The notes beneath the pieces are model-generated. The model saw only the letters and a list, made by a program, of their open reading frames with translations, was not told the origin of the DNA and did no database searches. A stretch of DNA of 64,000 nt from Microbotryum violaceum (taxonomy: Eukaryota), in contig CDLV01000005.1 in assembly GCA_001244265.2 (NCBI GenBank), positions 806,001 through 870,000 on the forward strand, read 5' to 3'. The position numbers and the translations under genes were made by a program. Shown here in pieces: positions 3,230 through 48,284 of the stretch (within the stretch, counting starts at the first letter, position 1; each line of letters opens with the position of its first letter).

Positions 3230-4440
<1,211 letters not shown>

Positions 4441-6838: not shown

Positions 6839-8412
6839 GAGAAGGGTAGTGACTGTCAGAGTGTATATTGCTGTTTCATCCCACTTCTATTACCGATCAC
6901 AATTAGTTACTAGTTGTTGATATTAGTCGCCTCGCGCGGCTATTGCTTGCCTCGCGCGCTCCTACTCTGCGCTTCTCTTCTTTCTCCAACTGTCTTTACT
7001 ATCATCCTCGGCTCTCGTACTAAACGTATCTCGTGCCTTGGCTTTAGGTTCTAATAGCGACCACGCAAGTCACGAAGTTGTTGAGAGACGCTGGCATGAG
7101 GAGCAAATGTATTTGTTTGAATGAAGGGCTCAGAGTAGACCACGTGTAGACAAGGGGATTGCATTGAGAGTTGAGAGAAGTGGGACAAGAGCGCGCATCA
7201 AGCTGCCTCTCAAAACGAGCCACTGTACTGCCACTCTCCGCCTTTCCCGCGCAACCGGCACCGCCCTTCTCACATTGCGCTGTGCCCCTTTCCCTGTCCG
7301 CCTCCAACGCTATGCTCCCAAAATCTCGGACTCTCGCTCTTGCTTCACGCTTGACTCGTACTAGGACCCCATTGGGGGTCATCAAGCACCGCGTCCTCAA
7401 TCCTCAAGATCTCTCCTAGGTTCCGCCGCCGTCTCCTCTGACCTAGTGAAAGGCACGAGATTGCGCTCGAGCCTCACTGAATCCGAATCCAAACAGAAAG
7501 GATCAAACGGTGTATTCGCAGGCGCAGAAAGACTACTAAAAGGACCCGTGGCGCCGCGCGCAAGTAAAGTTTAGGCCGCTGAGGTTGGCTTGAGGTTGTC
7601 GTGAGGCGGAAGCGGAGCGGCGCCTTACACCTAACTCCGACCCAGTTTTGTAGCTCGCAACTTTCTTCCTTTTCTGCAGCTCCGAATCTCGTCACAGGTC
7701 GCATCTTTGCTCTCGTCCTTTGTCCTCGTCTCTCCTGAGACGACCCCAGAACATTGCTTGACTCATCCCGTGTCCCTTGCCCCTTCAACTCGAAGTTGTC
7801 TCGAGCCCCGTTGTCCGGCTCGCCCTCCTATCCTGGTCCTTTGTGATACTACCCGGCCAGCCTGCTCGTTACCCGGGCCTGGTGACACCCGGATTCAGCA
7901 GCTAGCCTTGTTGGGTTGTCTCGTATTGGTCCAGAATCTCAAGGGTAATGTGGATGTCTTTTTTCATCCTGCAGGGTGTTCCACTCAGGTCAGAAGCGTC
8001 AATCTTGGCTTTCCCGCGGCTGCGCATAGGCACGGGACGTGCATGAGCCCTCGTCAACACGGTAATCTTTGTTCTGTTGTAATGATCTGGAGACGTGCGA
8101 TGACGAGCAGCGAGGGCGAGCTTGCGCGTGGTCAATGGTGTTCAAGAGGCAAGGTGCGATAACGCGCTGACGCTTCGCACGCGCGACTGTCTCGGACCAT
8201 CGAGCGACCACGCCAACAACCGCAGGAAACGTGACGGAAGACGAATCGATCCCCAGAATCGGGAAGCCCTGGACTTTAAAAATATTATAGTGCTGATTGA
8301 GTTGCTGAAATATCATACTCTGGCCGCCTATCGCCCTTTCGCGTCCAAATGAAGAATCCCCGGCTCCCTTCCCATGTCTTGCGTGAATAAAATACTGCCC
8401 CGGGACCGATCT

Positions 8413-8976
8413 TCAACATCAATAATTAGATCGAAATTTGCAGATTCGACGGTTCGTCACCTCATCTTCACAAGGCGGGCAACGCTCAGAGGTCCGAGCG
8501 CAGGGCTCTTCGGAGAAGCGCAGTATAAAGTTCGGGCGTCGATATGCCTCCTCTCGCTTTCCCTTCGCCCTCCTCTCGTTCACCTGGTGCGCATCGCCCT
8601 CCACTGCCACCACACTACCTCAAGCCCTTGCACGCCTCCAACATCCCGTCGCCACATCGATCGGCTTGCCTGCGATTCGCCGATGCAATCGCCGAAGGTG
8701 GCTCCCGGTGTCCTGCCTCCGTCATCGGTGCCACCGGCGGGGCTCCCCAACTTCGAGCGCTCTTGCTGGGCCAACTCGTGGCTACAATTCCTCCGCGTAG
8801 ACCCAGATTTTGTTCTCAGTGTACGAGAACTTGCGCGGGCCAGAACCGACGAGTTGGAGACTGCGAATGGTGGGTTTCACCGCTACTGGTGCCAAGTGGG
8901 GTCACCAAAGCGCTCGATCGTTCCACTGACTTTCGGCCATCGGACTCGTTTGAACCTGCAGATGGACCCATGGCGG
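8413..8976 (+). repeat. Left arm of 564-bp inverted repeat (copy of promoter plus first exon of USP-like gene)
   Basis: Reverse complement of 9895-10458; identical ORF translations on both arms; contains TATAAA (~8525), CT-rich leader and ATG at 8683. Confidence 0.95.
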
Positions 8977-10188
8977 CTGCGACGTTCGAGTCGTCGACGT
9001 GGAACCAGCGGTCCCCTGAGCACACGACGCAGGTGTAGTGGGAACGCGACGGATGGTAGAGCAGGAGGCTCATGAGGTGCGCCGGCTGAGCCGTGGGCGC
9101 TCGCAACGCATCCTCGCCTCTGCCGTCAAGGGTCGGCGCGATCGCGATGGGGGTCGCACAAGGGAGGGGAACCGTCACTCTTGAATCGGTCGCCGACAAA
9201 GCCGGGGCCTCGACCAAGGCCGACGATGATAGGAGAGGTTCCCCGAGCGAGCTTTGCCTCGACGTGGGCAAATTCTTCGCGGAAGCGGCACGTGACGAGG
9301 GTCGCAATGCAGTGGTCGGTCGGGGAGTCAGCTGAGGGTTTCTCGGGGCCCGTTTCGGTCAACACGAGACGCAAGGTCACGATCACGACCTACCTTAGAT
9401 TTGTGCATTCCGGTGGGTCCGCCAGGAGTTGAGTCGAGCGCGCGACCAAGGGGTGGTGGTACCCCTCAAAGAATTGGACTTGGCCGTCCATACAGCCGCC
9501 GAAACTCTCCTGTCGTCGTCGGAGCTTGGCGGCGAGCTCGGGGTTCCGCGCCTCAATGCAGGGCAAGCAGGCTCGTGCTTCGTTCGTCGAAACGTAGTGT
9601 CGTTCGTCGGGGATGGCCAGCTCGGGGAATACTCGCACGATCGCGTCGAGCGCGTCGTTGGGGTCGGCATCGCCGGCCGCGATGGGTTGCCCGCCGGTCG
9701 CAGTCATCGCGCCTGTCGCGGGTGAGGATGGACGACGCGCCGTGTGGGGGTGGAGAGGGGTTAGTGCGCTAGCACGGTGAGATGACCGAGGCTCCCGGGT
9801 CGCTTGGTCGCGTGCGACTCACCGGAGAGGAATCGACGGAACGGTACAACGCCAGCCGGATCTCCGTCAATAACCATGCGCATCCCCTTGAGTCCCGCCA
9901 TGGGTCCATCTGCAGGTTCAAACGAGTCCGATGGCCGAAAGTCAGTGGAACGATCGAGCGCTTTGGTGACCCCACTTGGCACCAGTAGCGGTGAAACCCA
10001 CCATTCGCAGTCTCCAACTCGTCGGTTCTGGCCCGCGCAAGTTCTCGTACACTGAGAACAAAATCTGGGTCTACGCGGAGGAATTGTAGCCACGAGTTGG
10101 CCCAGCAAGAGCGCTCGAAGTTGGGGAGCCCCGCCGGTGGCACCGATGACGGAGGCAGGACACCGGGAGCCACCTTCGGCGATTGCAT
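8816..10188 (-). CDS. Divergent ubiquitin-specific protease (peptidase C19/USP)-like gene, possibly disrupted
   Basis: Cys box GLPNFERSCWANSWLQ, Asp-box-like DADPNDALDAI, His box SHYTCVVCSGDRWFHVDDSNV, in order on the minus strand with introns; C-terminus runs into the inverted copy of its own 5' end; possible frameshift near 9150-9190. Confidence 0.65.
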
Positions 10189-30777: not shown

Positions 30778-30835
30778 GAGCAGCTACGAAGAACGACAAG
30801 AGGAACGAGCAGCTACGAAGAACGAGAAGAGGAAC
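30778..30835. repeat. 29-bp tandem duplication
   Basis: gagcagctacgaagaacga(c/g)aagaggaac x2. Confidence 0.85.
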
Positions 30836-30861
30836 GAAACTTTGGAACTGAAAAAAAAAAA

Positions 30862-30943
30862 AGCCCCGATTCGGATTTGAACCGAAGACCTGACGATGTC
30901 CATCACTGGAGTCGCCCGCGATAGACCACTACGCTACCAGGGC
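30862..30943 (-). tRNA. tRNA-Trp(CCA) with ~8-nt intron
   Basis: GCCCTGG/TCGGGGC acceptor stem, TAGCGTAGTGG A box, GGCGA-CTCCAG-[TGATGGAC]-A-TCGTC anticodon arm, GGTTCAAATCC B box, followed by a long T-run terminator. Confidence 0.9.
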
Positions 30944-30997
30944 CCGTTGAAAGACTCGTCCCCAATTGTTAATATATTGCGCAAAGCACTCTTTTTA

Positions 30998-32640
30998 AGG
31001 GTCCTTCAACTTCTTTGGGCTCACCCGACCGTTCACTATTCGAAAGCTTCGTCGGCTTGTGAACGTGGTTCGGTTCCCAGGGAGGGAGGATCGTGTCAAG
31101 CGTTTCCGTGATGGGACTTCTCAGAGCGATAGGAAGCGCTTCTGGAGATGGCTTCATGACCGGTTTGCGTCTGCTGTGGAGCAGGACACCCACTGGCGGC
31201 TCATGTACGACGTGACGCCGACGCGCAAGAGGCAGCATACTCAGGGTCATGCCTCTTCGCCGACGTGTCTGTTCTGCGGCAACGATGCAGCGGTCATCGA
31301 GACGGTGTCGCACTACTTCTTCGAGTGCGCGTACTCGACCAGCTTCTGGGGTGGGGTGCTTCGCATTCTGTTCGACAAGCTGGGCATCGAGGATACCGAC
31401 GTCGATCCGTCGACGTTCACTCCGGAGCAGCTGACTATGGGGCTCCCCTTTTGCGGGGTCGTGGGAGAACGACCTCGAGATGGATGTGGGTTCGGCTGGC
31501 CTGCGCGATCGGCTTCCAGCGGCTGCACCTGCTCCGCTGGCGCGTTCATCAGCGGTTCGAGCTGGACAAGGTCGTGGCCCCTCCCTCGCTCCCCAGTGCA
31601 CTCAGAGCGTTCGAGCGAGATTTTCTCTCTCGAGCGGGTTTTGTGCCTGGGGCTCGAGATTGGGAGGTGTGATGACCGAGTTAAGTCGTTCCTTCCCATT
31701 TTCTTCCCCTCCTTTCCTCCCTTCTTTTTCGGAGGTCGACTCCTCTTTTAGAAGCTGACTGTCTTGGAACTTGTTGCGCAGTGGAAGGCTGCGCACCTCT
31801 CCCTCTCTCTCTCTACTTTGCGCAGTAGCGGTTTTTTGTTCTTGGATGGATCGGCAAGCCAGGTCGATTGTCTTTGCGTTGGAGGCTTTGTGAAGTTTTT
31901 TCCCTCTCCTTTCCCCCCTTTTTCCCTTCCCTTCCTCTTCTCGTTCCTGTTGCTCGGTTGTTGACTACGCTTCAGCCACTTCTCCTTTTACTCCTAAGCC
32001 GTGTGTTGGATTCCGTTGAATGGTTCGTTCGTTCGCGTTGGTCAAGATCTACGGCATGGCTCGGGAAGGAAGGTCGCTCGTTTCTGGTCAATATCCTCGC
32101 GTCAAGGCGAGGCTCGTTTCATTGTACTGGATCGCTTTTCTCTCGGCCCCGACGGCTCAACAGCCAGCACTCGAGATTCAGCCAAGGGAGGACATCAGGC
32201 GCTGTCGGGGTGACGAGTAGCTGGGGCTTGGCTGCGGCCTGTTAGTCCCTGGGGACCTCTACCTCCGGCTTCGACCCCCTCCCTTGGCCCCTCGGGTGTG
32301 TTCCCCTCCTCTCTGTCTTAGTATTCCTGGTTCTCCGTATCCCCAGTTGTGACTTTCTGTATACTCTCCCCCTTCTTTCTCTAGGCTCTCTTGCCTGGTT
32401 TTCGAGTATCTTTGCTCCCGCTCTTGGGACGTGAAGCGGCAGCAGTACTCACCGCCCGTTGGAGTCCGCGTCAGGTGCTCGGCGGGCTTTGATCTGCGCA
32501 GCGCTCTTTGCGCGCAGGGGTTTGACTTTCACCCAACTGCTTGCCGTCGTTGCTTTATAACCTCCTTTAGCTCTTTTTGTAGCGGTCCCAGCCAACCCGA
32601 AGGATTGCAATTTATGAGCCCCAGTCAAAAAAAAAAAAAA
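30998..32640 (+). mobile_element. 5'-truncated non-LTR retrotransposon, family A (ORF2 C-terminal zinc-knuckle plus ~1 kb 3'UTR plus A14)
   Basis: SPTCLFCGN...ETVSHYFFEC (CCHC, zf-RVT-like); ends ttatgagccccagtc-poly(A); near-identical to 46326-47558; 1-bp deletion in a C-run near 31446. Confidence 0.9.
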
Positions 32641-32661
32641 TCATACAAAAAAAAAGTTTTC

Positions 32662-33449
32662 CGCCGCAGGGAAGCGAGGCCCCTGCGGAAGGTATACCCC
32701 GCCTCTTGTCTCCAGCTGCGCGCCGGTGTTGACGGCCACCCGCCCGCGCTGCAGACCGAGGCGTGTCCAATGGACTGTCACATGCTCCATGACTTTCCCC
32801 GGAAATCTCTGGATTGTGTGTTTTTGTGCGAAGTAGGCCTGTTTCGCAGTTGCAGTCATTGAAATGGGGGTGATCTGGGGTCGTGCGGTCGCGAGGGGGG
32901 CAGACTTTGGTAACCGAAAAGGGGGTTGGACTCCGCGGTGGAGATCCAGCGCAGACGGGTACAAGGGGTATGTGATTGCTGCGGTCGCAGGGGGTTACAT
33001 TCCCCCTTTTGGACCACGTGAATCATTCGGATTGAGCGGGATGTTTGTGCCATCGGAGGCCTTGTTCGACGCGTCTCAAAGAATTAAGGGCCTCAAGGAG
33101 TATGGCAGTCTCAGGGGGGTCTGAAGTCAAAAGATCGAAGAAGGTTCAACTGTACAACTATGATCGGATTCACCTGTACAACACATGTACCACCACCAAC
33201 ATTTCTTCCATCGTTTCCAGATTCCCCGTGTATTATCTTCAATCTTCCTTTCATTCGTCTCTGGGAGGGAGCAACCGTGGGTGGGGGGGACTTGAACTCG
33301 GATGTATCGGGTTGGTCTGTTCTGCTAGTTACAACGCATCGAGCGGCGGTTGTGGTCATCAACGTGCATACTGGGCAACATCACCTTTAGTTCCGTAGGG
33401 GGGTTTCTCGTCTTGCAAATTAGCGATGAGTTTCATACAAAAAAAAAAA
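32662..33449 (+). mobile_element. 3' fragment of poly(A)-tailed retroelement, family B
   Basis: Highly similar to 37459-38249; ends gatgagtttcatac-A11; flanked by GTTTTC on both sides. Confidence 0.8.
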
Positions 33450-33455
33450 GTTTTC

Positions 33456-36400
33456 GCGGCCGGTCCACGCCAAGCTCGCGGCGCGGAACTCGGACTCCAA
33501 GATCACAGCACTGCGCTTGAGCAACGGAGAGCTAACGCATGACATTGATGTCGCTCTTGACCACACGCAGGCGCATTTCCAGCGCCTCTACCACATCGAG
33601 CCTCGTGACCCGGACCGCGTCGACCGACTTCGGGACGAATTCCTCGCGCCGATCAGGGCGGCGCGGACTTGCGACGACCCGCGCTCGGATCCTCTCTTTC
33701 TGCGCCGACTCTCGGAATCACAGAACGACTTACTCCAGCGACCAATCACCGAGGACGAGGTCGTGGCCGCGATCGGGACGACGCACCCGGGGCGATCGCC
33801 GGGACCGTCGGGCGTGCCCTACGAACTCTACCAGACCGCACCCAAGGCGTGGGCCAAGGTGCTGACCAAGGCCTACAACGTGATGATAGAGCGAGGCTCA
33901 CTCTCTCCCAAGCAGGGCCAAGGACTCGTGCGCCTCATCTTCAAGCGACACAAGAAGAATGCTGATCGCGCCGAACTTTCGGCGTACCGGCCGATCACCC
34001 TGCGCGAGTGCGATTACAAGATCTTTACCAAGGTCTATGTCGCCCGTTTGAACCAAATTCTACCGGATCTCCTCCCGCCGCAGCAGCACGGATTCGTCAA
34101 GGACCGCCGATTGGCTGACGCTGCACTACACCTTCGTCTCCTGATCGAGGAAGTTGGCGCGCGCAGGACCGAGTTCCCCGCGGCCGCACTCTTATCTCTT
34201 GACCAATCGTCCGCCTACGACCTCGTCGAGCATGACTGGATCTTTGCCATCTTTGACACTCTGGGCGCTCCTGCCACCTTTCTTCGCGTGCTGAGGATGC
34301 TCTACTCGGGTGACTCGACCTCGGCCCGCTACATCATCAATGGGTTCTTGACGGCGCCGGTACGACTGACGTGTGGGCTCGGCCAAGGGGACCCGGCGTC
34401 GTCGTCGGTCTGGGACATCGTGTTTCAGCCGTTTCTGGATGCTCTACACCGTCGAAACATCGCGCTGAATCTCTCCATACCTGCACTTCATCCGTACCCA
34501 CAGAGCCGCGCCATTACATCGCTTGCTTTTGCCGATGACGTTGTCGTCGCCGTCGCGGGCTTGGGGTCACTCAACTTGCTCGATGACCTGGCGCTCGACT
34601 GGAGGCATGCAACGAATGGCCGGCTCAACACGGACAAGACGGTCGTCCTACCGATCGGACGCCGCTGGGACCCGGGGCAACGCCCGCTCGTCGTCAAGGC
34701 CGCAGGCGAGTCGCTCGAGTGGATCGGCCTCCCCTTCGACCCGAGCGGCGACACCGAACTCGCCTACGCGAATCTCATCGAACGCCTCGAGGCGACGCTG
34801 GAAGGGGTTCAGCATCGCTGGCTCACACACCACACCCGTGCCTTTTACGTCAATCGGTACGCCATCCCCAAGATCCTGCACTTCCTTGCAGGCGACATCC
34901 CGCCGCCCGAAGTCGTCAAGAAGCTCGATGACATGCTCGTCGATTTCGTCCGTGGGGGCAAGGGCAGGACCAGCTACGGCAGAGATATCGTGTTCACAGC
35001 CAAGCTCAAGGGGGGACTCGGGGTGATCAGGATGCAGGACGTCGTGGACGCGGTTGCGGCACGGATCTGGGACGTTCTTCTCGGCGGTTCGGGCGCGATC
35101 TGGCAAGGACTTGCGCGCGCGGCACTCCAGCGAGCTCAGTCCGACCTCGACCTGGCCACCGATCTCTGGCCACATCCATCCACTCCCATCCCCAGCGACC
35201 TCCATCCCCGATGGCGAGCAGCTTTGGGGGTTCCGAAACAGCAAGACGCGCAGGTCAACCCGAGGACCTTGACCACCGCGAACCTGCTCGCGCTTCCCAC
35301 CTTGCTCGGCAGCCTCCACACCCCCATCAGAGGGAGACAGACCATCGACGCGGTTCATATACCTGACTACCTTCGTCTCCAGGGCTACCCGAAGGTGGCG
35401 GATCTTTACCGGCGCGAGTTGTATGCGGGTGGGGGTTTCACCTTTGGACGCCGCCGGCGGATGTGCTCGGCGACAACAGCGAGTACGATCGACGCGGGCT
35501 CCCGCAGCGATTGGCAATCGCGGCCTGGTACCGGTTCACTGTCGATCGACACAAGAACACGCCCTTGGCGGTGGCGGTGGCGGCAGGACGGCTCAACGTG
35601 CCTCCCCGGATCGGCACCAGCGCACCACTCGAGGCGATTCTCCCCAAGCCCGTGGCCCGCTTCGCAATGGAGCAGCGCCTTCCGGACCCGGTGCTTCCAC
35701 AGCAGGCGAGCCAGTACAAGCTGCTGAACATGGCTCGACCGTACACCATCCGTCGCATCCGCCGGGTCCTGAACGCGAAGGCCTTTACCAACACGCTCGG
35801 GCTCAAGGGACCACCGCAGCCGGACGACCTCAGGAGCTTTTGGAAGGCGGTCAACTCGAAGGCACTGACGGCGAGGGAGAGGGAAGTTTGGTTCAAGCTG
35901 ATTCTCCGCTTCACCCCGACGCGTAAGCTGCAACACCAACAGAATCACGACACTTCTCCCGCGTGCCTCGTCTGCGAAGCGCCGGTGGACGACACCGACC
36001 ACTACTTTTTCGACTGCGTTGACTCTGGGAACGTTTGGATAGCGGCAAGGAGCGTGCTCTGCGACGCACTGGGGCTCGACACGATCGACAACACGCATTA
36101 CACGGCTGTTCAACGCATGTTCGGACTTCCGAAGCTCAAGGCCAGTCTACGCGATCAAGAAGGAGCGGGGAGGACGATCGAAATATTCACCGGGCTGGTC
36201 TTGGAGATGATCAGCAGCGGGAGGTGGGGGATGCAAAAGTGGGGGACGAGGATGGAGGGTGTTGGGAGGAGGAGGATCATCTTGGAGGAGAGGTTGAAGC
36301 TGAGGGCGGGAGGAGCTTGGGGGAGGAGAGGGCAGTAGAGGCTGGGTTCGACTTTCCCCCCACCACCACCACACACACACACCAAATTCTCGTGACATCA

Positions 36401-36997
36401 TTTTCTCCTACTGTACACTAAATAGATCGCTTTCATCTTTCATTTGTTACAGGTTCACCGTTGCGGATCATGGACCATCTCGCGATTTGGCGTCGACTCG
36501 GTGTGGCTCGCGCTCTTCGGCTTCGGGGTTCTGAGTCAAGGGAGGGATCAGCGGACACAGGCAGAAAGTCGGCTTTGAGGGGCCAGGGACTGCCGATGGG
36601 GGAGGTTTTGAGGGACCTTCACCGCGTCTTGTTGTGACTGAGCAGAGACTTGGAGCGTCGAGGGTCGTGGTGGTTGCGCAGTCGTGCTCTTGTCTTCGTC
36701 TCGACCGAGTGGGAAGTGGCTGTGGGGTGGGCCTTCTGTCGTTAGTACATTTCTTTTCTTTCTTTTTCTCTTCATCTCTCTTTCTCTCTCTCATTAGTCT
36801 CCGGGGGGGAGCAACCGCTTGGCTAGGGCATTTGAATCCGAATCTCGGATTGGTGGACTTGGCTCGTTTCTCGCACTTTTGCGGGCGGTTTGTGTTATCA
36901 TCGTAGTCTTCCATCTAGTTTTTCCGTAGGCCAAAACAGGGGGAACAGGAACTGGGGGCAATATGATGAACGTTTTCTACAAAAAAAAAAAAAAAAA
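33456..36997 (+). mobile_element. 5'-truncated L1/Tx1-clade LINE, family C (RT plus C-terminal CCHC, 3'UTR, A17)
   Basis: [59 protein letters not shown]; endonuclease and ORF1 missing; flanked by GTTTTC. Confidence 0.93.
33517..36338 (+). CDS. LINE ORF2 reverse transcriptase (partial; one -1 frameshift at ~35433)
   Basis: ORF 33517-35727 (RT) continues in the -1 frame as ORF 35463-36338 (zinc-knuckle). Confidence 0.88.
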
Positions 36998-37003
36998 GTT
37001 TTC

Positions 37004-38249
37004 CTCCTCATAGGCTTCCGTACTCCCCAGGAGCCTCGGGTTCTTTGCGCCGGCGGGCATTGTCGCCCTTGGTTCGAGCTTCTGCCACATCACGATGACA
37101 CACAGCGAAAACGGATCCCCTTGGCCCTCTCCTGGACTATACCGTGAGTTTTCCACTCCTCTCAAGGGCCGGGTCTGTTTTCTCTTTCGGTCGAGCGACC
37201 CCGTGATCTCCTGTTCAAGGCCGGCACAAACTGCCTGCGTGGCTCGCCTCTCCTTGCTTTGCTGCTCGCTCGGAGTCGCGGCCCCGCGGCGGGTGACTCG
37301 GGTACCGAACCGCCATACACATCCACACTCGAGCGAGGTCCCACCCAATGACATCACCGTCGTGGGCCTCATGCTCCTTCTTTCCCCAGTATCTGCGGTG
37401 ATTGGGAACCACCTGCACGTACAAGGGGACTCGAGTGTGCGTTCCGAGATTGGGAGTACGCCGCAGGGAAGCGAGGCCCCTGCGGAAGGTATACCCCGCC
37501 CTTGTCTCCAGCCGCGCGCCGGTGTTGACGGCCACCCGCCCGCGCTGCACCCGACCGAGGCGTGTCCAATGGACTGTCACATGCTCCGTGACTTTCCCCG
37601 GAAATCTCTGGATTGTGTGTTTTTGTGCGAAGTAGGCCTGTTTCGCAGTTGCAGTCATTGGAATGGGGGTGATCTGGGGTCGTGCGGTCGCGAGGGGGGC
37701 CGACTTTGGTAACCGAAAAGGGGTTTGGAATCCGCGGTGGAGATCCAGCGCAGACGGGTACAAGGGGTATGTGATTGCTGCGGTCGCAGGGGGTTACATT
37801 CCCCCTTTGGACCACGTGAATCATTTGGATTGAGCGGGATGTTTGTGCCATCGGAGGCCTTGTTCGACGCGTCTCAAAGAATTAAGGGGCTTCAAGGAGT
37901 ATGGCGGTCTCAGGGGGGGGCTGAAGTCAAAAGATCGAAGAAGGTTCAACTGTACGACTATAATCGGATTCGCCTGTACAACACATGTACCATCACCAAC
38001 GACTCATCCATCTTTTCCAGATTCCTTGTGTATAATCTTCAACCTTCCTTTCATTCGTCTCTGGGAGGGAGCAACCGTGGGTGGGGGGGACTTGAACTCG
38101 GATGTATCGGGTTGGTCTGTTCTGCTAGTTACAACGCATCAAGCGGCGGTTGTGGTCATCATCGTGCATGCTGGGTAGCATCTCCTTTAGTTCCGTAGGG
38201 GGTTTTCTCGTCTTGCAAATTAGCGATGAGTTTCATACAAAAAAAAAAA
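37004..38249 (+). mobile_element. Longer 3' fragment of family B retroelement
   Basis: Extends 32662-33449 by ~450 bp at the 5' end; same 3' end plus A11; no convincing ORF. Confidence 0.8.
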
Positions 38250-38476
38250 GAGTTTGCTCCCGCTCTTGGGACGTGAAGCGGCAGCAGTACTCACCGCCCG
38301 TTGGAGTCCGCGTTAGGTGCTCGGCGGGCTTTGATCTGCGCAGCGCTCTTTGCGCGCAGGGGTTTGACTTTCACCCAACTGCTTGCCGTCGTTGCTTTAT
38401 AACCTCCTTTAGCTCTTTTTGTAGCGGTCCCAGCCAACCCGAAGGATTGCAATTTATGAGCCCCAGTCAAAAAAAA
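38250..38476 (+). mobile_element. Short 3' fragment of family A LINE
   Basis: Matches ~32404-32634; ends ccccagtc-A8. Confidence 0.88.
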
Positions 38477-38500
38477 TAAGAAAATAAAAATAAAAATAAT

Positions 38501-38913
38501 CACACCATCACACTTCATCTTCTGACAAAACACTGTATACTAAATACCTTGCTTTCATCTTTCATCTCTTACAGGTCTGCTTTCGTTGCTCATGGACCGG
38601 CTCGCGATTTGGGATTGACTCGACGGTGCAGTGGCTCGCGCTCTTTGGTTTCGGGGTTCTGAGTCAAGGGAGGGATCAGCAGACACTGGCAGAAAGTCGG
38701 CTTTGAGGGGCCAGGGACTGCTGAGGTGGAGGTTTTGAGTGGCCTCCACCGCGTCTTGCTGTGACCGAGCGTAGACTTGGGGCTTCGTGAGTCAGGGTAG
38801 TTGCGCAGTCGCTCTCCTGTCTTTGTCTCGACTGAGTTGGGAAGTGGGTGCGGGGTGGGCCTCTTGTCGTTAGTACTAGTTGTTTTCCTTTCTCTCTCTC
38901 TGTCCTTCTCTCT
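38501..38913 (+). mobile_element. Diverged family C 3'UTR fragment lacking its 3' end
   Basis: Colinear with ~36375-36790 (e.g. ttcggggttctgagtcaagggagggatcagc, gaaagtcggctttgaggggccagggactgc). Confidence 0.8.
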
Positions 38914-39029
38914 GCGAGGCCGGCGGAAGCTTGATCGGAGCGTTCCCCTCATCCCGCTGCAACTTGACTCATTTTACCGCTATGTACATACACGTCGCGC
39001 GAGCGGTCCAGGGAGTCGACCCTGCCCAC

Positions 39030-39280
39030 TAGGGCTGGGTCACTTAATTGTTTTGGCCCCGTCACTAATAGGTGACAAAAGTCGGACCCTCGGTCACTTA
39101 TTATCGTCACCAGCACTCAAATGCTGTCACTAATGTCACTAAGTCCAATATTTGGTCACTAATGTAACTGAATGGAAACGATGTACATTGCACTGTCGGA
39201 GGCAAGCTCTAGCACTCAACATAACAAAGTGCACTAAAGAGACTAGTATCATTACATCGTCATTTCGTCGTCAGGTGACC
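39030..39280. repeat. AT-rich cluster of GTCACT/GTGAC motifs after TAGGGCTG; possible hAT-type DNA transposon end
   Basis: About 9 GTCAC/GTGAC copies within 250 bp starting at tagggctgggtcac; partner TIR not found. Confidence 0.45.
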
Positions 39281-39788
39281 AAAGATCCATCGCTTCGTTT
39301 TCCTCGTCGTCCAGCACCACTGCCGGGAGCGGAAGGTTGTTAGTTCGCTCCTCCGTTTATTTTTATTCTATTTGGCAGATTTTAATACCTAGAAACCTTC
39401 GGAAAAGTCGGAGGAAATGCTCTTACGCACACTGCCTGCTTGGTCAGGATCTACCTAGATATTTCTCGTGCCTGTGACCCGTCGTAACGCCTTGCCTTAC
39501 AGCGGAGTCGGCGGACGGCCACGGATCGTCTAGACAGGCACAATGAGGAGCAGCTAATGCAGGCGGGCTTCTATTCCTCCGACCCATCTTCAATTCCTCC
39601 TCGAGGTGTACCAACAGCGAGAAAATTATGTGATCTTGACCCTCGAGCAGCTTCTTCATCTCCCAGCTCTGAGTCGCTTATTTGTGTCTGTGCTTCATCA
39701 ATTGGGTGGAATAAACAAAATAACGACATGAAAATAAAATGAACGAAATAAGGCACAATCCGTCATCCATCAAAAATCAAAAGCATCG

Positions 39789-42700
39789 CTAGACCATGCC
39801 CAACCTCGACTTGGGTCTTTCGCCCAGCGGTCGATCCGTCGCGCGTGTCCCACTTGGAATCATCCTAGGACTGTTCATGTAAACGGTCGAAGGCGTGGTC
39901 GTCGTCTTATTACGCTGCAGAGGTGCCGACGCGCTCGCGTGGTATGCGACCGCAATCGAGCCCATGGTCTTGGCTCGCAAGTCCCCCGGAGGCGCTTTGC
40001 GCTTCCTCGTCATCTCTTCAATCACTCGACTTTCCTCTTCGCGCGAGTTCTCTTGTTCTTCCAAAGCGTCGATCAGCTCCGTGACGCTGCGGCGGCGACC
40101 AAGCGTCATCTCCTTTTCAACGTAGGCCGCTGGGGGATCAAATAAGGATGAACGGAGGGGTACAATTTTGCGACCCGAGTCGGTGACGGTCTCGCGCGGG
40201 ATCGACATGTCAGCGAAGCGCAAGGGCTGGACGTCCTCGGACCAAACCCTTCGTTCGGCCATCTCGGGTCCGGGACTGCCCGACGAGGAAGTGGTGCACG
40301 ACTCGTCCACTCGGCCACTGTTGTCTTGTTGTGCTGGTGCAGAGGGTGATCGTCGCACAAAAGAACCGAGATATCTCATCAATTTGCGCGCCGTGCTGGG
40401 TGGGCACTCTTGCTCCGCTTGATCCACCTCACGCGGCGCGGGAGTGCCTTCTCGTTCGCTTTCGTCAGCGAGGCCCCACGACTGCGAGGGGAGCTTGGGC
40501 TTCTCGATCGGCGCGTCGTCATAGAGGTACGCAAAGCGACTGCTGGCGAGAGCCAGCGGTGGGACGATGGGCAGCTCTTCCTCCTCGTCTTCGCCCTCCT
40601 CGAGCGGCCGGATCTCGATCTCCGTGGGGAGCTTGAGCTGACGAGGGCCACGACTGAAGAAGGTGTCGTCTTCAGCGTCGTGTTCGGGGCCGTCGTCGTC
40701 TGACAACTCCGAAGCGGGCAAGGACGGAGGCAAGACCTCGCGCTGCTTTCCCTTGGCGACCGCGCGAGAGAGCTCGAGGTCGAGCGTAGCGACGCGGCCT
40801 TGCGAGGGCTCGGAAGTCGAGGCGACTGAATGAGAGCGCAAGGAGCGCGTCTGTGAGCGACGAGCCCGCAGTGCCGTAATGCGCGTCACCATCTTCTCTC
40901 TGTCGAGCGTGTAGCAGAAGAATGCAGGTCAGCACATTAAACACCATGGAAACAGCATGGAAAACGCACCTTGACCAGTCCCCTACAAGCTCAGTCTCGT
41001 GCACATGGACGCGATCCAAAAACTTCATGATGACCGTTCGAACATTGACGGGCTCTCCCGTCTGCTTCGTTTCCCGCTCATGCTCGACCAGGGCTTTCTC
41101 CAAGGCCCTCCACTCCACCGAGGTCCACGATTCGGTGGTCGATCTCCCACCTTCGCTCGTGGCACGTACGCTCAGCGTCTTTCGGCGCAAGTCCATGCCG
41201 GGCACTGTAGAGACCTTCTTGACGGTTCTCAAGACTTCGCCCTCGGCTCGATTGAGCAATCGGCGAACGTCATTCTCGTCGACGATCGGCGGCCCCTCGA
41301 CGGGGGGCAACTGCACCGAAATACCCTGTTCGACGTACGAGTGGTAAACCTTGAGGATCGCAGCGGCTCGCGCAGCAGCCTGGGGATCCGGAGAAGTGAT
41401 CTCGACGACCGGAAAAGTCGGGTGGGAAGGTCGAGGCGCACGGTGGCTGCTTTGAGAAGATGTCATCGATGCTCGAGTGCTACGCGCCGAGGGGACGGGA
41501 GTCGATCGAGATGGGCCAGCGTGGGGTTCAAGACGCGGTGATGAGACCTTGCTCGCGCCGACGAACAGCACTTGGCGCAACATATCGATCCCCCTTTGGA
41601 CCTTGCCGCTGCTCTGCAATCGCTCCACCGACGCGGGTATCTTGGAAGTCGATTGGTACAGGGTGCGAATCGGCGAAGCGTCGCGACGCTCGGGTGTCGA
41701 AGACGCCAACTCGGCCGCTCGAGGGGACAGGCCGGCAAGGCTGGAGAGCACAGGTCGAATCGGCGAAGGGCTGCTCATGTGGATGTCGACGGCGTTCGAC
41801 GCGGTCCGCGTAGGAGTCGTCTGAACCATGAGCGATCCTTCGGCGAGAGCCAAGGGCAAGGTTGACAGTTCGTCGGGAGCAAGGTTCTCGGATTGAGGCA
41901 CGTGGGAAGACGAGGAAAGGGGCGAGCGACGATGGGTGAAGCCAGCCGAAAAGACGTCGGGTTTGACATCCTCTTGAAAGCTCGGCGGGCTCATGGCGTC
42001 GCTTCGGGAGGTAGGACCAGATGAACTCTGCATCGGTGGCGCGGGCTCTTCTGCAGCCTCGAACCGATCTTCTTCCTGCTCCTGCCCGTCCTCCTCGGCT
42101 TCGACTTCGACCCGCGCAGGAGACGGCGGCAGCTCTGGGGCGGTAGAGGGCCGCGTAGTCGCCAAGAGCGCATTAATCTGCGAGAACGGACTAACAGTTC
42201 GGCTGACATTTGGTGACGTTTCTCTAGCGCTTCGCATGGGCGTCGGACGTTCGCTCGAAGAAGCTGCTGAAAGAGGCTCAGCCGTCGAGGGCGCCACGGC
42301 GGGGACGGCGGGGGTCGGACGCATCGGGGAGATGGACTCGACCTTAGCCGTCTTACGCACTGGAGATAGCAATTCTGCGAGACGCGCAGCCAGGTTCTGT
42401 CGGACCAGTGATCCACCACTGGGCGAGACCGTATCACCGACAGTCGAGAGTTTGGGGTCGTGATAAGGATCTCGCGACCTCGGTCGCATGCTCGGCAGCT
42501 GGCTGAAGGGCGATCCGAGGAACATTGAAGGTTCCGAAGGCAGATCGACACGAGCAGGATTGAGAGAGGAGAAAATCCGGGGAGGCGAAGTGGAGGGGTC
42601 CCTCAGCGAGATCTCGGAATCGACGGCTCCGGGAGGGGGTGTCGGGATGCGCAGCGACTGCGATTGCGTGAGCGGAGGCGACATGGGCGCGCGCCCCAGA

Positions 42701-44226
42701 CCAAAGTACTCGTTGCCATCATCTTCGGTTGCCTGGGGTTGGACGCCTTCGTTCACCCGGAGTTCATTGGCATGGTGGACAGCCGGGTCGATGATTTCAT
42801 CTTCGACGTCATCCTCGTCACTCTCTTGATCCCGTAGTGCGAGAAAGTCGAAGCGATTGACCGGCTCGACGACCTCGTCAGGGATCCAGTCATGTTCTAT
42901 CCCGCCATAATCAGAAGAGTCTTCTACTTCCTCCTGAACTTTGGTCCCATGATTGTCGTCAAATCCGTTGCCGGGACCTTCGTCGATGGTGCCGGATCCG
43001 AGCGGTGCCAAGTCCACGTCGTTCCAATCATACGGCTCTGCTTCGCGCGGAGTTTGACGCTCTGGTGATACTGAGGACAGCTGCATGACCTCGATGTCAA
43101 GCTGACTGGCATTATTATCCTGCTGGCCCTTGTTTGACACTCGTCGCGACCTTGCCACACTGCTCGTGCGTGATCTAAGCCTCGATGATGTGGACTGCGA
43201 TCGCCACGAAGCTTGTTCGGCTGGCACATCTACGCTCTCGCTCCGAGGTCTTCCTTCGCCTTTGCCGCGTGTCTCGTCGCTGCCCTTGAGCAAGATGGGG
43301 TCGTCGCTGTCGCTCTCGGGGTGGTGGTCGACGGAGACAGGCAATATTTCGCTCGGGACGGGGACAAACGAGCTTCTCCGTCGCTTCGGCCCCGTTCCCT
43401 TTCCTCTCGGCGTCGTCTTGGACGTGGTTGCCGTTGGTTTGGGCGAAGCGCGTGATGTACCCGACGATTGTCTACGGTTGGTCGCACCGGCTTGGGGCGA
43501 AGGGACTGGTGACGCCGAGGTCGAGCTGCGCCGCCGGGTGGGTTTCGTCATGTGAGCCGCGGTGACCTGAATCGTCTCGAGATCCACTGTGGTCGAAGGT
43601 GGGGCAAGAAGCTACAGGCAAAAAGGGTCGAGTCAGCAAAGATATAACTCGTCATCTTTGGGCGAAAATATGCTGACCTGAGTGCTCGAGCGCCTCGGCC
43701 GGGACGATCCTGCAACCGCTCTCTCCTGTGAGAGTCGAGATTTGTTGGTCTTTGGCACCGCTCGTTGAGGACTTTGACTATTGGGTGGGGTTGGCATGAT
43801 CGAGGTCTCGTTTGAATCGAAGCCGAGCTGGGACTGCGAATCGTCGCCGCCGCCGTCGCGCGCATCACGTGCTTCTGCGTGGTCGTCCGGGTCTTGATGG
43901 TCGCTCGTTGGCAGTTGTACCAGCAACGACGGTCTGGCGCTCGACGAAGGTTTTGCAATTCTGCGGGGCGAGCCGTCTGTGATGATGACGTTGGTAACGG
44001 CCGTAAAGGGTTGTCGTCGGGTCGTGGCTGGAGACGCTGAGAGGGCGGTCGGAGGCTTCGTTGAAGGACCGCGTGCGAGAGCGGGCATCAACGGCGGTGC
44101 GGGTGACGGAGCGCGTTGCAAGGCTTTTACACGTCCCTGAAGCAGGCCGACGGAGGATGATCGATAGGGTGTGTTCTCATCGCGGGCATGGGCTGCAGTC
44201 GAAGAGGGTTGACGTGGGGCAAACAT
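39789..44226 (-). CDS. Large low-complexity Ser/Pro/Arg-rich hypothetical protein, 3 exons
   Basis: ORFs 43633-44226, 40672-43587 and 39789-40892 separated by GT..AG introns. Confidence 0.72.
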
Positions 44227-45507
44227 CCGGGAAAGGGGCTAGTTCGTTGCGTGTCTGAGCGTGTTTGGGGCCGCCAAGTCCAGTCAGTCGGCCGGTCCGT
44301 CGCACGCGTTCCTGCCAGAAGTCACAACTGGCAGTAGCAACAGCGGTGCTTTGAGCTTCATCAGTCAATATCCGTTTCGGGTGATATATAGGACTTGGGC
44401 TTCCCTTCGACGTACCTCTTTTGACGCGGCGTGGTCCGGTCTAAAGCGCACTGTTGATCGGTCAATCAACAATCGCCCAACTTCGGTGATCAAGGCGATT
44501 GAGGGTTCGATACACTGATGCACTGAGAGTATTAGGCGGCCAAGAAAGGGAGCGTATTGCTAAAGAAGTTGCTAACAGGTCGAAGGGTTCGGAGTTGAAG
44601 GTAATGATCGCCGGCTGAGCTCCAATGAGCTCATTCAAGCGCGCTGGCCGGCGAAAGCGACGAAATGCGGGAGGTCCGAGCGCTGATAACAGCCTCAGCA
44701 GGCTCTAGCCTGTGCCCCTGCACCGACCCCGGCCTCTTGAATCACCTGAGCCTGATGCGAGCCACGAGCTAAGCATGTCTACGCAGTCCCAATTTTCAAC
44801 CAAGTCGAATATCTAGGTAACTGAATCTTATTGTCGAGGTATGTAAGAAGTCAGCGGACGAGCGGTACTATCACTCAGCAGTGGCGTCGAGCTTCTTTCG
44901 GATCGTTTTCAACACTGCAGAGACGAGCACATCTTCTCAATAAGATTCCAGCTCCGTGGAGTGCGAGAGCGACTTACCCCCTTCGTTGAAGCCAGTCGGA
45001 TCGAAGGTGTAGACCCCTTTGAGCCCTTGCGACAAGGCGTATTTCTGTCAGGAGGGGAAGAGATTAGCTCAGTTCACAACTTAACGCGACTAGCAAGCTC
45101 GGACTCACGGTCTTCTCACCCGCAGAAGACGCATCATCATAGTTGATCATCACTTTGGTCTTCAAGTTGAACAGGAAAGGGGTGGCGGAGCAAGCATCGA
45201 CATGACGCGTCCATCCCCTCGAGCCGACCCGATGCCGTTCAAAGACAGGAGCTATGGCATGAAAAATCGTCCGGATTCCGATTGAGTGGAGCGCATGAAT
45301 GAAGGAAGCAAAGCTCTTATAAACGCTCCATACTCACACGACATAATTACACATCCCGGTGTACGAAGCCGTTCTCACACCACAGACATCGACGACGGTA
45401 TTATTCGCCTCCGTCCTGTTCTTCGTGAACACATTACGCATGTCCTAGCAGATTTGCGAATGTTGGAATCAGCGATGATCCCGAAATGATCAACAAAAGA
45501 AGAAGAA

Positions 45508-45579
45508 CGGCTGGACCAGGAGTCGAACCTGGGTCGCTTCCATTAATCGGAAAAGCTTTGACCACTAAGCTATCCGGCC
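45508..45579 (-). tRNA. tRNA-like gene (72 nt) with atypical anticodon loop GA-TTA-AT, nested in a chitinase intron
   Basis: GGCCGGA/TCCAGCC acceptor (one mismatch), GCTT/AAGC D stem with AGTGG, TTTCC/GGAAG anticodon stem, CCAGG-TTCGACT-CCTGG T arm, TTTT ~10 nt downstream. Confidence 0.75.
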
Positions 45580-45650
45580 CCTGATATCAGTGCAAGGTCT
45601 ACTAACACCTTCAACAACGAAGTGAACCCCTTGATCTTCTGAGACTTGAG

Positions 45651-45771
45651 GGTTTGACTTTCACCCAACTGCTTGCTGTCGTTGCTTTATAACCTCCTTC
45701 AGCTCTTTTTGTAGCGGTCCCAGCCAACCCGAAGGATTGCAATTTATGAGCCCCAGTCAAAAAAAAAAAAA
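45651..45771 (+). mobile_element. Family A LINE 3' fragment plus A13
   Basis: Matches ~32519-32639. Confidence 0.88.
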
Positions 45772-46325
45772 GCGGAGCTCGTTCGTTTTATTGGATCGTT
45801 TTTTTGCCCGACTTCCGACGGCTCAACAGCCAGTACTCGAGACTCAGCCAAGGAGGGCCATCGGGCGTTGTCGGGGTGACGAGTAGCTGGGGCTTGGCTG
45901 CGGCCTGTTGGTCTTTGGGGACCTCTATCCCTGGCTTCGACCCCTTTCTTGGTCCCTCGGGTGTGTCCCCCCTCCTCCCCCTCCTTTCCCCTTGTTTTAG
46001 TATTTTCCTTTCTCGGTGTTCCCGTTTGTGACTTTCTGTATATTCTCTTCCTTCTTTCTCTAGGCGCTCTTGCCTGGTTTCGAGTATCTTCGCTCCCGCG
46101 CTTGGGACGTGAAGCGGCAGCAGTACTCACCGCCCATTGGAGTCCGCGTTAGGTGCTCGGCGGGCTTTGATCTGCGCAGCGCTCTTTGCGCGCAGGGGTT
46201 TGATTTTCACCCAGCTGCTTGTCGTCGTTGCTTTATTACCTCTTTTAGCTCTTTTTGTAGCGGTTCTAGCCAACCCGAAGGATTGTAATTTATGAGCCCA
46301 GTTAAACAAAAAAAAACGAAAAAAA
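45772..46325 (+). mobile_element. Diverged family A LINE 3' fragment with degenerate A tail
   Basis: Colinear with ~32110-32626 with many substitutions. Confidence 0.88.
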
Positions 46326-47558
46326 CGGAGCAGCTGACTATGGGGCTCCCCCTTTTGCGGGGTAGTGGGAGAACGACCTCGAAATGGATGTGGGTTCGGC
46401 TGGCTTGCGCGATCGGCTTCCAGCGGCTGCACCTGCTCCGCTGGCGCGTTCATCAGCGGTTCGAGCTGGACAAGGTCGTGGCCCCTCCCTCGATCCCCAG
46501 TGCACTCAGAGCGTTCGAGCGAGATTTTCTCTCTCGAGCGGGTTTTGTGCCTGGGGCTCGAGATTGGGAGGTGTGATGACCGAGTTAAGTCGTTCCTTCC
46601 CATTTTCCTCCCCTCCTTTCCTCCCTTCTTTTTCGGAGGTCGACTCCTCTTTTGTGAGCTGACTGTCTTGGAACTTGTTGCGCAGTGGAAGGCTGCGCAC
46701 CTCTCTCTCTCTCTCTCTCTCTACTTTGCGCAGTAGCGGTTTTCGTTCTTGGATCGATCGGCAAGCCAGTACGAGCGTCTTTGCGTTGGAGGCTTTGTGA
46801 AGTTTTGCCCTCTCCTTTCCCCCCTTTTTCCCTTCCCTTCCTCTTCTCGTTCCTGTTGCTCAGTTGTTGACTACGCTTCAGCCACTTCTCCTTTTACTCC
46901 TAAGCCGTGTGTTGGATTCCGTTGAATGGTTCGTTCGTTCGCGTTGGTCAAGATCTACGGCATGGCTCGGGAAGGAAGGTCGCTCGTTTCTGGTCAATAT
47001 CCTCGCGTCAAGGCGAGGCTCGTTTCGTTGTACTGGCTCGCTTTTATCTCGGCCCCGACGGCTCAACAGCCAGCACTCGAGATTCAGCCAAGGGAGGACA
47101 TCAGGCGCTGTCGGGGTGACGAGTAGCTGGGGCTTGGCTGCGGCCTGTTAGTCCCTGGGGACCTCTACCTCCGGCTTCAACCCCCTCCCCTGGCCCCTCG
47201 GGTGTGCTCCCCTCCTCTCTGTCTTAGTATTCCTGGTTCTCCGTATGCCCGTTTGTGACTTTCTGTATATTCTCTTCCTTCTTTCTCTAGGCGCTCTTGC
47301 CTGGTTTTCGAGTATCTTCGCTCCCGCTCTTGGGACGTGAAGCGGCAGCAGTACTCACCGCCCGTTTGAGTCCGCGTTAGGTGCTCGGCGGGTTTTGATC
47401 TGCGCAGCGCTCTTTGCGTGTAGGGGTTTGACTTTCACCCAACTGCTTGCCGTCGTTGCTTTATAACCTCCTTTAGCTCTTTTTGTAGCGTTCCCACCCA
47501 ACCCGAAGGATAGCAATTTATGAGCCCCAGTCAAAAAAAAAAAAAAAAAAAAAAAAAA
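46326..47558 (+). mobile_element. Family A LINE 3' fragment (end of ORF2 plus 3'UTR plus A26)
   Basis: Near-identical to 31423-32640; intact frame EQLTMGLPLLRG...ARDWEV*. Confidence 0.9.
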
Positions 47559-48284
47559 TGCGGAAAAATGCGGATGCGCCAAAAAAAAAAAAAAAGAGCC
47601 TGTACGAGTAGCCATAGGCAGGGATGCCGAGCATCATCTTGGAAACGGGGATCCCAGCCTTCTTGAACGTGTCGAACACCTCGACGACACTCGTCACGCT
47701 CTTGCATGTCCTCAGCCGGCAATTAGGCCCCGAGGTGGCTTCCCATGGTCCACCGACATCGTAATTCATCAAGTTAATAATGTCAAAGACTCTGCCGAAA
47801 TCGCTCATGTCCGCCAGGGAGCTGCCGTCGGGTCCTACCAATCCCGGGGTTGCAATGGAGGCGGTGATCAACTTTGACGGAAACCCTGTTCGGATCGAGC
47901 GACGATACCGTTGCTTCACAAAAAAATAATCCGGCTTCGGTCAGTAGCTCTTGCGCTGTAATTTGCTAAAATTCACGTGCTGGATTTGTCTTCTCTTTGT
48001 ATGTTTGCATGATGCAAAGAAGCCGTTCGGCATACTACGGCCAGCCAACCTTCGCCCAAACGCCACGTGACTCGAGGGCATTTTTGAGGCGAGTTCTGTG
48101 ACACTAACGTGGAATGGGAATGCAACGACGCGCTTCGGGCCTCAGCTAGCTGAATCTGCGTCTCATCTGAGACCATGGAAAGCACTCGCTATCGAGGTCC
48201 AGTATCACTGATAATTGACTTATTGGATATCATACAAGTGTCTATAGCTGCCTGCATAGGATACACAACAGATGATCCGCCGCT

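Follow-up and report, generated by a model that had tools for sequence, protein, structure and literature searches.

A question raised by a 64,000-nucleotide stretch of the Microbotryum violaceum genome (contig CDLV01000005.1, positions 806,001 to 870,000 of the forward strand; hereafter the window) is whether its long interspersed nuclear elements (LINEs), i.e. retrotransposons without long terminal repeats (non-LTR), lie beside tRNA-type units by coincidence or were guided there by the RNA polymerase III (Pol III) complex. All 10 delimited LINE pieces of the window are gathered in two head-to-tail stacks on the plus strand, every piece being 5'-truncated, and exactly two tRNA-type genes, both on the minus strand, are detected in the 64 kb by ARAGORN with introns allowed; a stack stands beside each of the two. 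The 5' ends of stacks 1 and 2 lie 56 bp (±2) and 71 bp upstream of the 5' ends of these units and 116 and 121 bp, respectively, from box B, and the orientation is the same for 10 out of 10 pieces, i.e. LINEs on the plus strand and both units on the minus strand, with the LINE 5' end facing the tRNA 5' end. For two founding insertions, the probability of such a placement, i.e. both lying 40–90 bp upstream of either unit with this orientation, is about 6e-7; it rises to about 1.4e-4 if a generous window is allowed that extends from 150 bp past the 3' end to 232 bp upstream in either orientation. The arrangement is real and far beyond chance within the window. We favour the explanation, to which we assign a probability of roughly 0.6, that L1/Tx1-like LINEs of a fungus have independently evolved an integration directed by the Pol III complex that is similar to that of the dictyostelid element TRE5.

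The stacks were delimited by self-BLAST, by a tblastn search with 115 LINE proteins from public sources, by scanning for A/T stretches of at least 9 nt and by a base-by-base coordinate check. An earlier sequence-only reading of this DNA had placed LINE stacks next to both units in a head-to-head, TRE5-like geometry and had seen no copies of the families elsewhere in the window. These three claims hold: the stacks and their distances are as given above, and no copy of the families A, B or D (described below) was detected outside the stacks by self-BLAST or by tblastn with the same 115 proteins. The sole retroelement match outside the stacks is a gypsy-like fragment (3492–4486, plus strand), which is 42–57% identical to part of the public protein P0067.

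The tRNA-Trp gene beside stack 1

A tRNA-Trp(CCA) gene that is split by an 8-nt intron constitutes the first unit (30862–30943, minus strand); it was recognized by a local scan with Rfam model RF00005, by ARAGORN with introns allowed (option -i; call c[30861,30944]) and by reading of the sequence. When an 800-bp slice was scanned, it scored 45.4 bits (E = 2.3e-8), the Rfam threshold for tRNA being 29 bits; both whole-window Rfam scans (gathering and E-value modes) as well as ARAGORN at default settings missed it. Since default scans overlook such an intron-bearing gene, tRNA counts obtained with them for fungal windows are too low. Box A is located at +8 and box B (GGTTCAAATCC) at +61, and a T12 run follows directly after the gene on the tRNA strand (plus-strand A12, 30851–30862). 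A 31-bp direct tandem repeat, with 97% identity between its units, lies just past this terminator (30778–30837).

By reading of the sequence, a spacer of 56 bp (30944–30999) separates the gene from stack 1 and includes a TATA-like TATATTAA at positions -33 to -26 of tRNA-Trp (30969–30976). TFIIIB is expected to sit just upstream of a tRNA gene, and the TATA-like box at this distance would thus put the integration site of stack 1 just past the expected TFIIIB position. The sequence-only reading had taken both units for minus-strand tRNA genes. This is correct for tRNA-Trp, which is a normal, intron-bearing gene; the unit at 45508–45579, by contrast, is not a gene but a tRNA-derived repeat.

A mobile tRNA-derived repeat in a GH18 gene beside stack 2

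This second unit has a tRNA-like core (45508–45579, minus strand) that is called by ARAGORN and, with 49.2 bits in the whole-window scan, by Rfam. Its boxes A and B are intact, with box B (GGTTCGACTCC) at +51; its anticodon loop, GATTAAT, is aberrant, with an A at position 33 and TTA as 'anticodon' (the ARAGORN label is 'Stop(tta)'), and the acceptor stem contains a C–A mismatch. We therefore reject it as a bona fide tRNA gene: U33 and a sense anticodon are missing, and the core is part of a dispersed repeat that is flanked by duplications and located within coding sequence. The repeat as a whole (45461–45617, minus strand) is 156–157 bp long, has TG..CA ends and was delimited by contig divergence and by comparison with a GH18 ortholog. 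When the contigs of four public sequencing runs were compared with positions 45000–48000, 15, 13, 12 and 8 of them, respectively, matched up to 45461 and then diverged from one another, and 6–7 contigs diverged after 45616/7. The summed depth is about 75–90 times that of single-copy DNA over the tRNA-like bin and tens to hundreds of times over family A, values that are not copy numbers; no second copy of the repeat occurs in the 64-kb window. The flanks read cgaa/cgaa, i.e. a perfect 4-bp duplication (gcgaa/acgaa match at four of five positions), and deletion of the repeat together with one flank copy restores the G-F-T-S-Q of the GH18 ortholog of M. intermedium (P0118). As its removal restores the GH18 reading, the repeat is a transposed element that generated an integrase-type duplication of 4–5 bp.

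The gene into which it transposed encodes a chitinase-like GH18 protein (44883–45459 and 47596–47940, minus strand) and is interrupted by both the repeat and stack 2. The fragment cut by stack 2 (47596–47940, minus strand) matches PF00704 with a Pfam E-value of 5.8e-11 over profile positions 150–233 of 317, and GH18 pieces found by tblastn end at 47596 and restart at 45459. Between the repeat and stack 2 there is a spacer of only 34 bp (45617–45650, minus strand), which is itself GH18 coding sequence (L-K-S-Q-K-I-K-G-F-T-S, as translated and aligned with P0118 residues 238–251). The minus-strand reading thus runs as ...AYGYSYRL to 47596, then stack 2, LKSQKIKGFTS, the repeat and SQ..., with in-frame stops; given these stops in the continuation, the gene is a pseudogene. 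At stack 2, 12 bp of the GH18 target (K-S-S-K) were lost, and there is no duplication. Orthologs or paralogs are intact or near-intact in M. intermedium and M. lychnidis-dioicae (P0118, P0120 and P0121; P0119 is also an ortholog). A joint of 45160 to 47603, present in three runs at single-copy depth, was considered as an empty site and is now read as a probable GH18 paralog that has two conserved 60-bp stretches in common with the locus; the paralogs P0120 and P0121 are known to exist. In the four public runs, no listed contig crosses stack 2, with the left flank stopping at 45451–45499 and the right flank resuming at 47570–47587; in one run a 47-kb contig matches 45000–45398 and then 47922 onward.

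Thus, a transposed tRNA-like unit within former coding sequence has a LINE stack of its own. With the repeat newly arrived in a GH18 gene and the stack only 34 bp away, a Pol III promoter adjoins LINEs at a place where nothing else would attract them. There is also no evident sequence common to the two target sites, and the GH18 target contains no A/T run, which makes it less likely that the founders were placed by an endonuclease that recognizes a specific sequence or seeks out poly(A). This second locus bears as well on a retention bias, in which LINEs would integrate at random and survive only at harmless sites such as the upstream regions of tRNA genes. The window is indeed gene-dense and no LINE piece is found in any other intergenic space; selection, however, cannot generate a fixed distance or orientation, stack 2 lies inside coding sequence, and the remaining intergenic DNA is free of LINEs. 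We consider retention bias very improbable.

Composition of the stacks

Stack 1 extends from 31000 to about 38920 and consists, in this order, of A1, a D remnant, D-short, B, D-long, A4 and C, all on the plus strand; six of these seven pieces carry an A tail, and C, which has none, is also 3'-truncated. A1 (31000–32640, i.e. 31000–32626 plus A14; Pfam PF13966 and tblastn) belongs to family A and is truncated at about amino acid (aa) 1680 of an open reading frame (ORF) of about 1900 aa; it retains the zf-RVT C-terminus and a 3' untranslated region (UTR) of about 970 bp and is 97–98% identical to P0054, P0060 and P0008 in tblastn. The D remnant (32641–32655) consists of no more than the final 6 nt (TCATAC) of family D and A9. 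There follow three units that each begin with GTTTTC. In the first (32656–33449), GTTTTC (32656–32661) precedes D-short (32662–33438) and A11, D-short being 95% identical to 37459–38250 by self-BLAST. In the second (33450–36997), GTTTTC (33450–33455) precedes B (33456–36980) and A17; B shows RVT_1 and zf-RVT in Pfam, is truncated at aa 1118 of a 2082-aa ORF and is 98% identical to P0010 (tblastn). The third (36998–38249) contains GTTTTC (36998–37003), a segment of 455 bp (37004–37458), the 3' part of D-long (37459–38238) and A11. The 455-bp segment is of unknown origin, being either an upstream part of D or original DNA, and an ORF at 37014–37712 yielded neither a Pfam match nor a protein homologue. 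The single large element bearing a reverse transcriptase (RT) that the sequence-only reading had seen here is actually two elements, divided by the internal A17 at 36981–36997. At the distal end of the stack are A4, which retains only the terminal ~220 bp of family A and a decayed A-rich tail (38253–38499), and C (38500–38920), a B-like 3'-UTR fragment that is 82% identical to B and 90% identical to L001, a copy from outside the window that is discussed below. The truncated right end of stack 1 is adjoined by a region (~39028–39180) with a CACTAGGG terminus and five subterminal repeats of the type GTCACT(A/T)A, which resembles the end of a CACTA-type DNA transposon.

Stack 2 (45651–47595, plus strand) is made up of family A alone, and all three pieces are tailed. 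S2_1 (45651–45771) consists of the last 108 bp of family A (45651–45758) and A13. S2_2 (45772–46325), with G and CGGAGC ahead of it, is a diverged copy, about 86% identical to the other A copies, which runs to 46307 and has the tail A9-CG-A7. S2_3 (46326–47595), 1.2 kb long, starts with CGGAGC and comprises 46326–47532, A26, 47559–47580 and A15. The non-A pieces at 47559–47580 (TGCGG and TGCGGATGCGCC) between the A runs at this distal end may be remnants of very short insertions.

Families and affinity of the elements

The pieces represent at least three families, i.e. A, B/C and D, as had been supposed. RVT_1 and zf-RVT are found by Pfam in the copies of the window. The full-length B relative P0010 contains an apurinic endonuclease-like (APE) domain at 750–976 (PF03372), RT at 1288–1520 (PF00078) and zf-RVT at 1927–1983 (PF13966). 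P0010 (2082 aa) and the A relative P0060 (1902 aa) are each a single ORF with a region of about 750 aa preceding APE, both being public gene models and not verified transcripts. Among solved structures, human L1 ORF2p is the closest relative (E = 4.8e-25, versus 3e-17 for R2). With APE located N-terminal to RT, a C-terminal zinc-binding domain and L1 ORF2p as the closest solved relative, the domain pattern indicates that the LINEs of the window are L1/Tx1-like. Family D has no detectable coding capacity and could be a non-autonomous partner of B, judging by the sequence. The last ~14 nt of D and B ahead of the tail are alike (..GATGA..TTTC.TAC; 33425–33438, 36967–36980 and 38225–38238).

The RT-bearing ORF (P0001) shares 94–98% identity with M. 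silenes-dioicae and M. saponariae proteins, and the identity of 98% between the RT and M. silenes-dioicae proteins agrees with the basidiomycete host that had been deduced from the letters. Among the matches listed, the nearest relatives of the RT come from Microbotryum and Sporobolomyces, with the next relatives at most 31% identical; this fungal affinity suggests that the habit would have originated independently of TRE5, i.e. by convergence.

Several public Microbotryum 'proteins' of 2000–3500 aa (P0003–P0008, P0012, P0016 and P0056) are read-throughs of two stacked LINEs or of a LINE and a copia element, and these models cross poly(A) tails, which are translated as runs of lysine. Because P0003–P0008, P0016 and P0056 span two LINE copies in the same orientation, stacks are common in other Microbotryum genomes; such gene models carry no information on tRNAs.

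Growth of the stacks

GTTTTC occurs at three successive junctions of stack 1, i.e. before D-short, before B and after the A17 of B. Since it precedes pieces that differ in family and truncation point, it represents a target duplication passed on from event to event, which implies repeated independent integrations with the same nick pair used at least twice. The members of the stack are thus independent integrations, and one-step template jumping or tandem duplication is ruled out by the propagated hexamer. A derivation of GTTTTC from B was considered and dropped once a third copy had turned up behind the internal A17. CGGAGC ahead of S2_2 and S2_3 was likewise rejected as a 6-bp target duplication, because the family-A consensus CGAGGC already matches it at four of six positions.

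These junctions speak directly to the notion that each stack arose in a single event, by RNA-to-RNA template jumping or by local tandem duplication. Template jumps have been described for a fungal LINE in the available part of one report (PMC2104539), and some junctions here have no duplication. Jumps, however, would not be expected to propagate GTTTTC, no flank is duplicated, and the copies differ by 2–14%, by their truncation points and by family. We regard a single event per stack as hardly credible.

The question is then where each newcomer entered. In a fixed-site model, insertion always occurs beside the spacer, so that the most recent copy is the one closest to the tRNA. This accounts naturally for the recurrence of both nicks; moreover, the most distal tailed copy of stack 1 (A4) has the most decayed tail, and the G between the tail of S2_1 and CGGAGC is not repeated after the tail of S2_2. 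In a tail-entry model, each newcomer integrates into the A tail of a copy already present, and the duplication takes the form A(k)+GTTTTC, which fits all three occurrences; under this model, only the two proximal family-A copies would have been placed by the Pol III unit. We lean towards the fixed site, although the data cannot settle the matter. An age order based on divergence was discarded, as the most diverged copy of stack 2 (S2_2, ~86%) is the middle one under any model. The claim in the sequence-only reading that all three families target Pol III genes goes further than the data, since entry of the later copies into tails would leave just two proximal family-A copies in need of targeting.

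If tail entry is taken further, the stacks could have grown by tail-directed integration from founders placed by chance, i.e. LINEs would prefer poly(A) tails and the proximity of the units would be coincidental. An A run does precede every inner junction, S2_3 offers a tail of A26, and the fungal LINE Zorro3 integrates at poly(A) sites according to the available text of PMC7175516; the read-through gene models of same-orientation stacks in other Microbotryum genomes are also in line with such growth. What this explanation leaves unaccounted for is the position of the founders, 56–71 bp upstream of the sole two units and in the same orientation (p ~1e-4 to 6e-7). The clean targets in GH18 and L001 have no A run, from which it follows that these LINEs do not need one, and the single G after the tail of S2_1 and the decayed tail of A4 fit poorly with it as well. 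Chance founders followed by tail-directed stacking are, in our judgement, quite unlikely.

A related locus away from Pol III units

A scan of metagenomes produced five related loci, and a scan of viral contigs for such loci found nothing. Only one of the five, L001, includes a 5' end, the other four being RT fragments without one. L001 occupies about 2786–9022 of a metagenome contig that derives from a relative of Microbotryum. It is a B-like LINE of nearly full length and ends in an A10 tail; its best tblastn segment is 85% identical to P0010 at the amino acid level, and an internal deletion removes part of the RT (aa ~1365–1634). It is inserted blunt and in opposite orientation in a copia gag, and the gag reading continues across the insertion.

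Is integration directed by the Pol III complex?

In the explanation that we favour, family A certainly, and families B and D possibly, prefer a fixed place upstream of DNA where Pol III initiation occurs. TFIIIC bound to boxes A and B would position TFIIIB just upstream of the gene, and the LINE ribonucleoprotein would be held beside this Pol III complex, perhaps via the region of ~750 residues that precedes the endonuclease. The endonuclease would then nick the tRNA-sense strand ~56–85 bp upstream, followed by target-primed reverse transcription. A mobile repeat of tRNA origin whose A and B boxes are intact would serve just like a genuine tRNA gene, and repeated rounds would build stacks of uniform orientation. 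The role of TFIIIB and TFIIIC in this scheme is drawn by analogy to known systems, and guidance may have acted on every stack member or on the founder only.

Several observations weigh against this explanation. It rests on two loci of one window, and the distances of the founders to the tRNA 5' end differ by 15 bp. The 12.4-kb contig of L001 contains no tRNA detectable by ARAGORN, Rfam or an 800-bp local scan, and no box-B-like word is present within 500 bp upstream of the element; the one further informative locus out of one is thus not at a Pol III unit, so that targeting cannot be strict, at least for B-like elements. The tRNA-distal S2_3 has the longest pure tail (A26), which suggests youth and hence favours tail entry, and the insertion order is compatible with both models; under tail entry it would be 2 events, not 10, that occurred next to a Pol III unit. 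As the second target lies in a former gene, the notion of a 'safe haven' does not apply there. Binding of TFIIIB or TFIIIC by the LINE protein, finally, is a prediction.

The same junctions and the same outside locus are relevant for a passive hotspot, i.e. DNA just upstream of active Pol III units that is nucleosome-free, or that often breaks at stalled replication forks, and that LINEs of any family exploit without any contact to TFIIIB or TFIIIC and partly without their endonuclease. In favour of it, the junctions are heterogeneous: stack 1 shows a 6-bp duplication, 12 bp were lost at stack 2, and A1, S2_1 and L001 are joined bluntly; several unrelated families share one site, and L001 demonstrates that entry elsewhere is possible. 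Passive breakage is difficult to reconcile, however, with a 6-bp duplication that recurs three times with both nicks at the same nucleotides, with an orientation that is uniform in 10 of 10 pieces and with a nearly equal spacing from box B at two unrelated loci. A passive hotspot is therefore rather doubtful, if less so than the other alternatives to guidance by the Pol III complex considered above.

A variant of Pol III-directed integration, which we put forward tentatively as a possibility clearly behind the favoured explanation itself, is a two-tier system. Here, the mobile tRNA-derived repeat would spread working Pol III promoters as landing pads through the genome, and several LINE families would be guided to them by the Pol III initiation complex; with a nick pair ~116–121 bp from box B, LINEs would pile up at each pad.

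Comparison with known systems

The closest functional parallel is TRE5-A, which, in the available text of PMC3159450, integrates ~50 bp upstream of tRNA genes with its 5' end facing the tRNA 5' end and 114–127 bp from the B box on the ribosomal DNA element. The elements described here are likewise non-LTR retrotransposons with APE and RT that are found ~50 bp upstream (56 and 71 bp, and 116 and 121 bp from box B) in a fixed orientation at two of two units. They differ in their fungal host, in an RT whose nearest relatives are fungal and in one B-like copy (L001) being located away from a tRNA. All TREs have two ORFs (PMC5006619, available part); this arrangement with a separate ORF1 is not found here, where the models P0010 and P0060 are single ORFs. 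A precedent for an independent origin of the tRNA-upstream habit is NLTR-B of Polysphondylium pallidum. This non-LTR element is not related to the TREs and integrates upstream of tRNA genes as TRE5 does (same source); it belongs to an amoebozoan and to a different lineage with an RNase H domain and is set beside our elements by its description only. Zorro3 of Candida albicans is, like ours, a fungal L1-clade LINE, and its preference for poly(A) could explain the growth of stacks (PMC7175516, available text); it has no known link to Pol III, and the GH18 and L001 targets have no A run. The yeast elements Ty3 and Ty1 integrate upstream of Pol III genes via contacts with TFIIIB or Pol III (PMC5911963, available part) and differ in being LTR elements with an integrase and other distances.

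The intact gene and the dissimilar site sequences also set the present case apart from LINEs that insert within an RNA gene at a specific sequence. Among these are Dewa, Keno and Mutsu, Tx1-clade LINEs that insert into small RNA genes, and Utopia, an APE-type LINE that is reportedly tied to multicopy small-RNA genes.

The tRNA-derived repeat at 45461–45617, for its part, resembles a solo LTR of Helenus (TRIMp3). Helenus elements are tRNA-derived non-autonomous terminal-repeat retrotransposons in miniature with 5-bp duplications in fungi (Kojima 2024, PMC10886601, available text). The repeat shares with these LTRs the TG..CA ends, an internal tRNA-like stretch that contains boxes A and B and receives a 'suppressor' or non-functional anticodon call, a short target duplication and many dispersed copies, as is evident from the contig divergence at 45461. 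It differs from them in that the window holds one solo copy, without paired LTRs, primer-binding site or polypurine tract, and in that its duplication is 4 bp if perfect or 5 bp with one mismatch. Helenus is reported as not found in Microbotryum in the same text.

As far as their available parts go, two overviews list tRNA-gene-targeted non-LTR elements from dictyostelids only, i.e. TRE5, TRE3, NLTR-A and NLTR-B (PMC5911963, from 2018, and PMC5006619, from 2016). The genome paper of M. lychnidis-dioicae counts 392 LINE copies and 0 short interspersed nuclear elements, and the word 'tRNA' is absent from its main text. In the literature outside subscription journals, Repbase reports and supplements, we found no description of a fungal LINE with this habit, in agreement with the sequence-only reading. 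A new element in the explanation that we favour is the mobile tRNA-derived repeat that serves as a LINE target.

Implications

Our findings matter for the interpretation of predicted tRNAs and chimeric gene models in annotations of Microbotryum. If the two-tier view is true, mobile pads would carry the 'safe haven' into genes, as at GH18, and the genomic LINE load would track the spread of a small repeat. If Pol III-directed integration as such is true, this L1/Tx1-like case in a fungus would represent an independent origin of the dictyostelid solution. With many complete genomes and population data being available, Microbotryum could then reveal which part of the LINE protein recognizes the Pol III complex and with what precision the molecular ruler works, and the tRNA-derived repeat as a target would constitute a natural experiment that has no counterpart in Dictyostelium.

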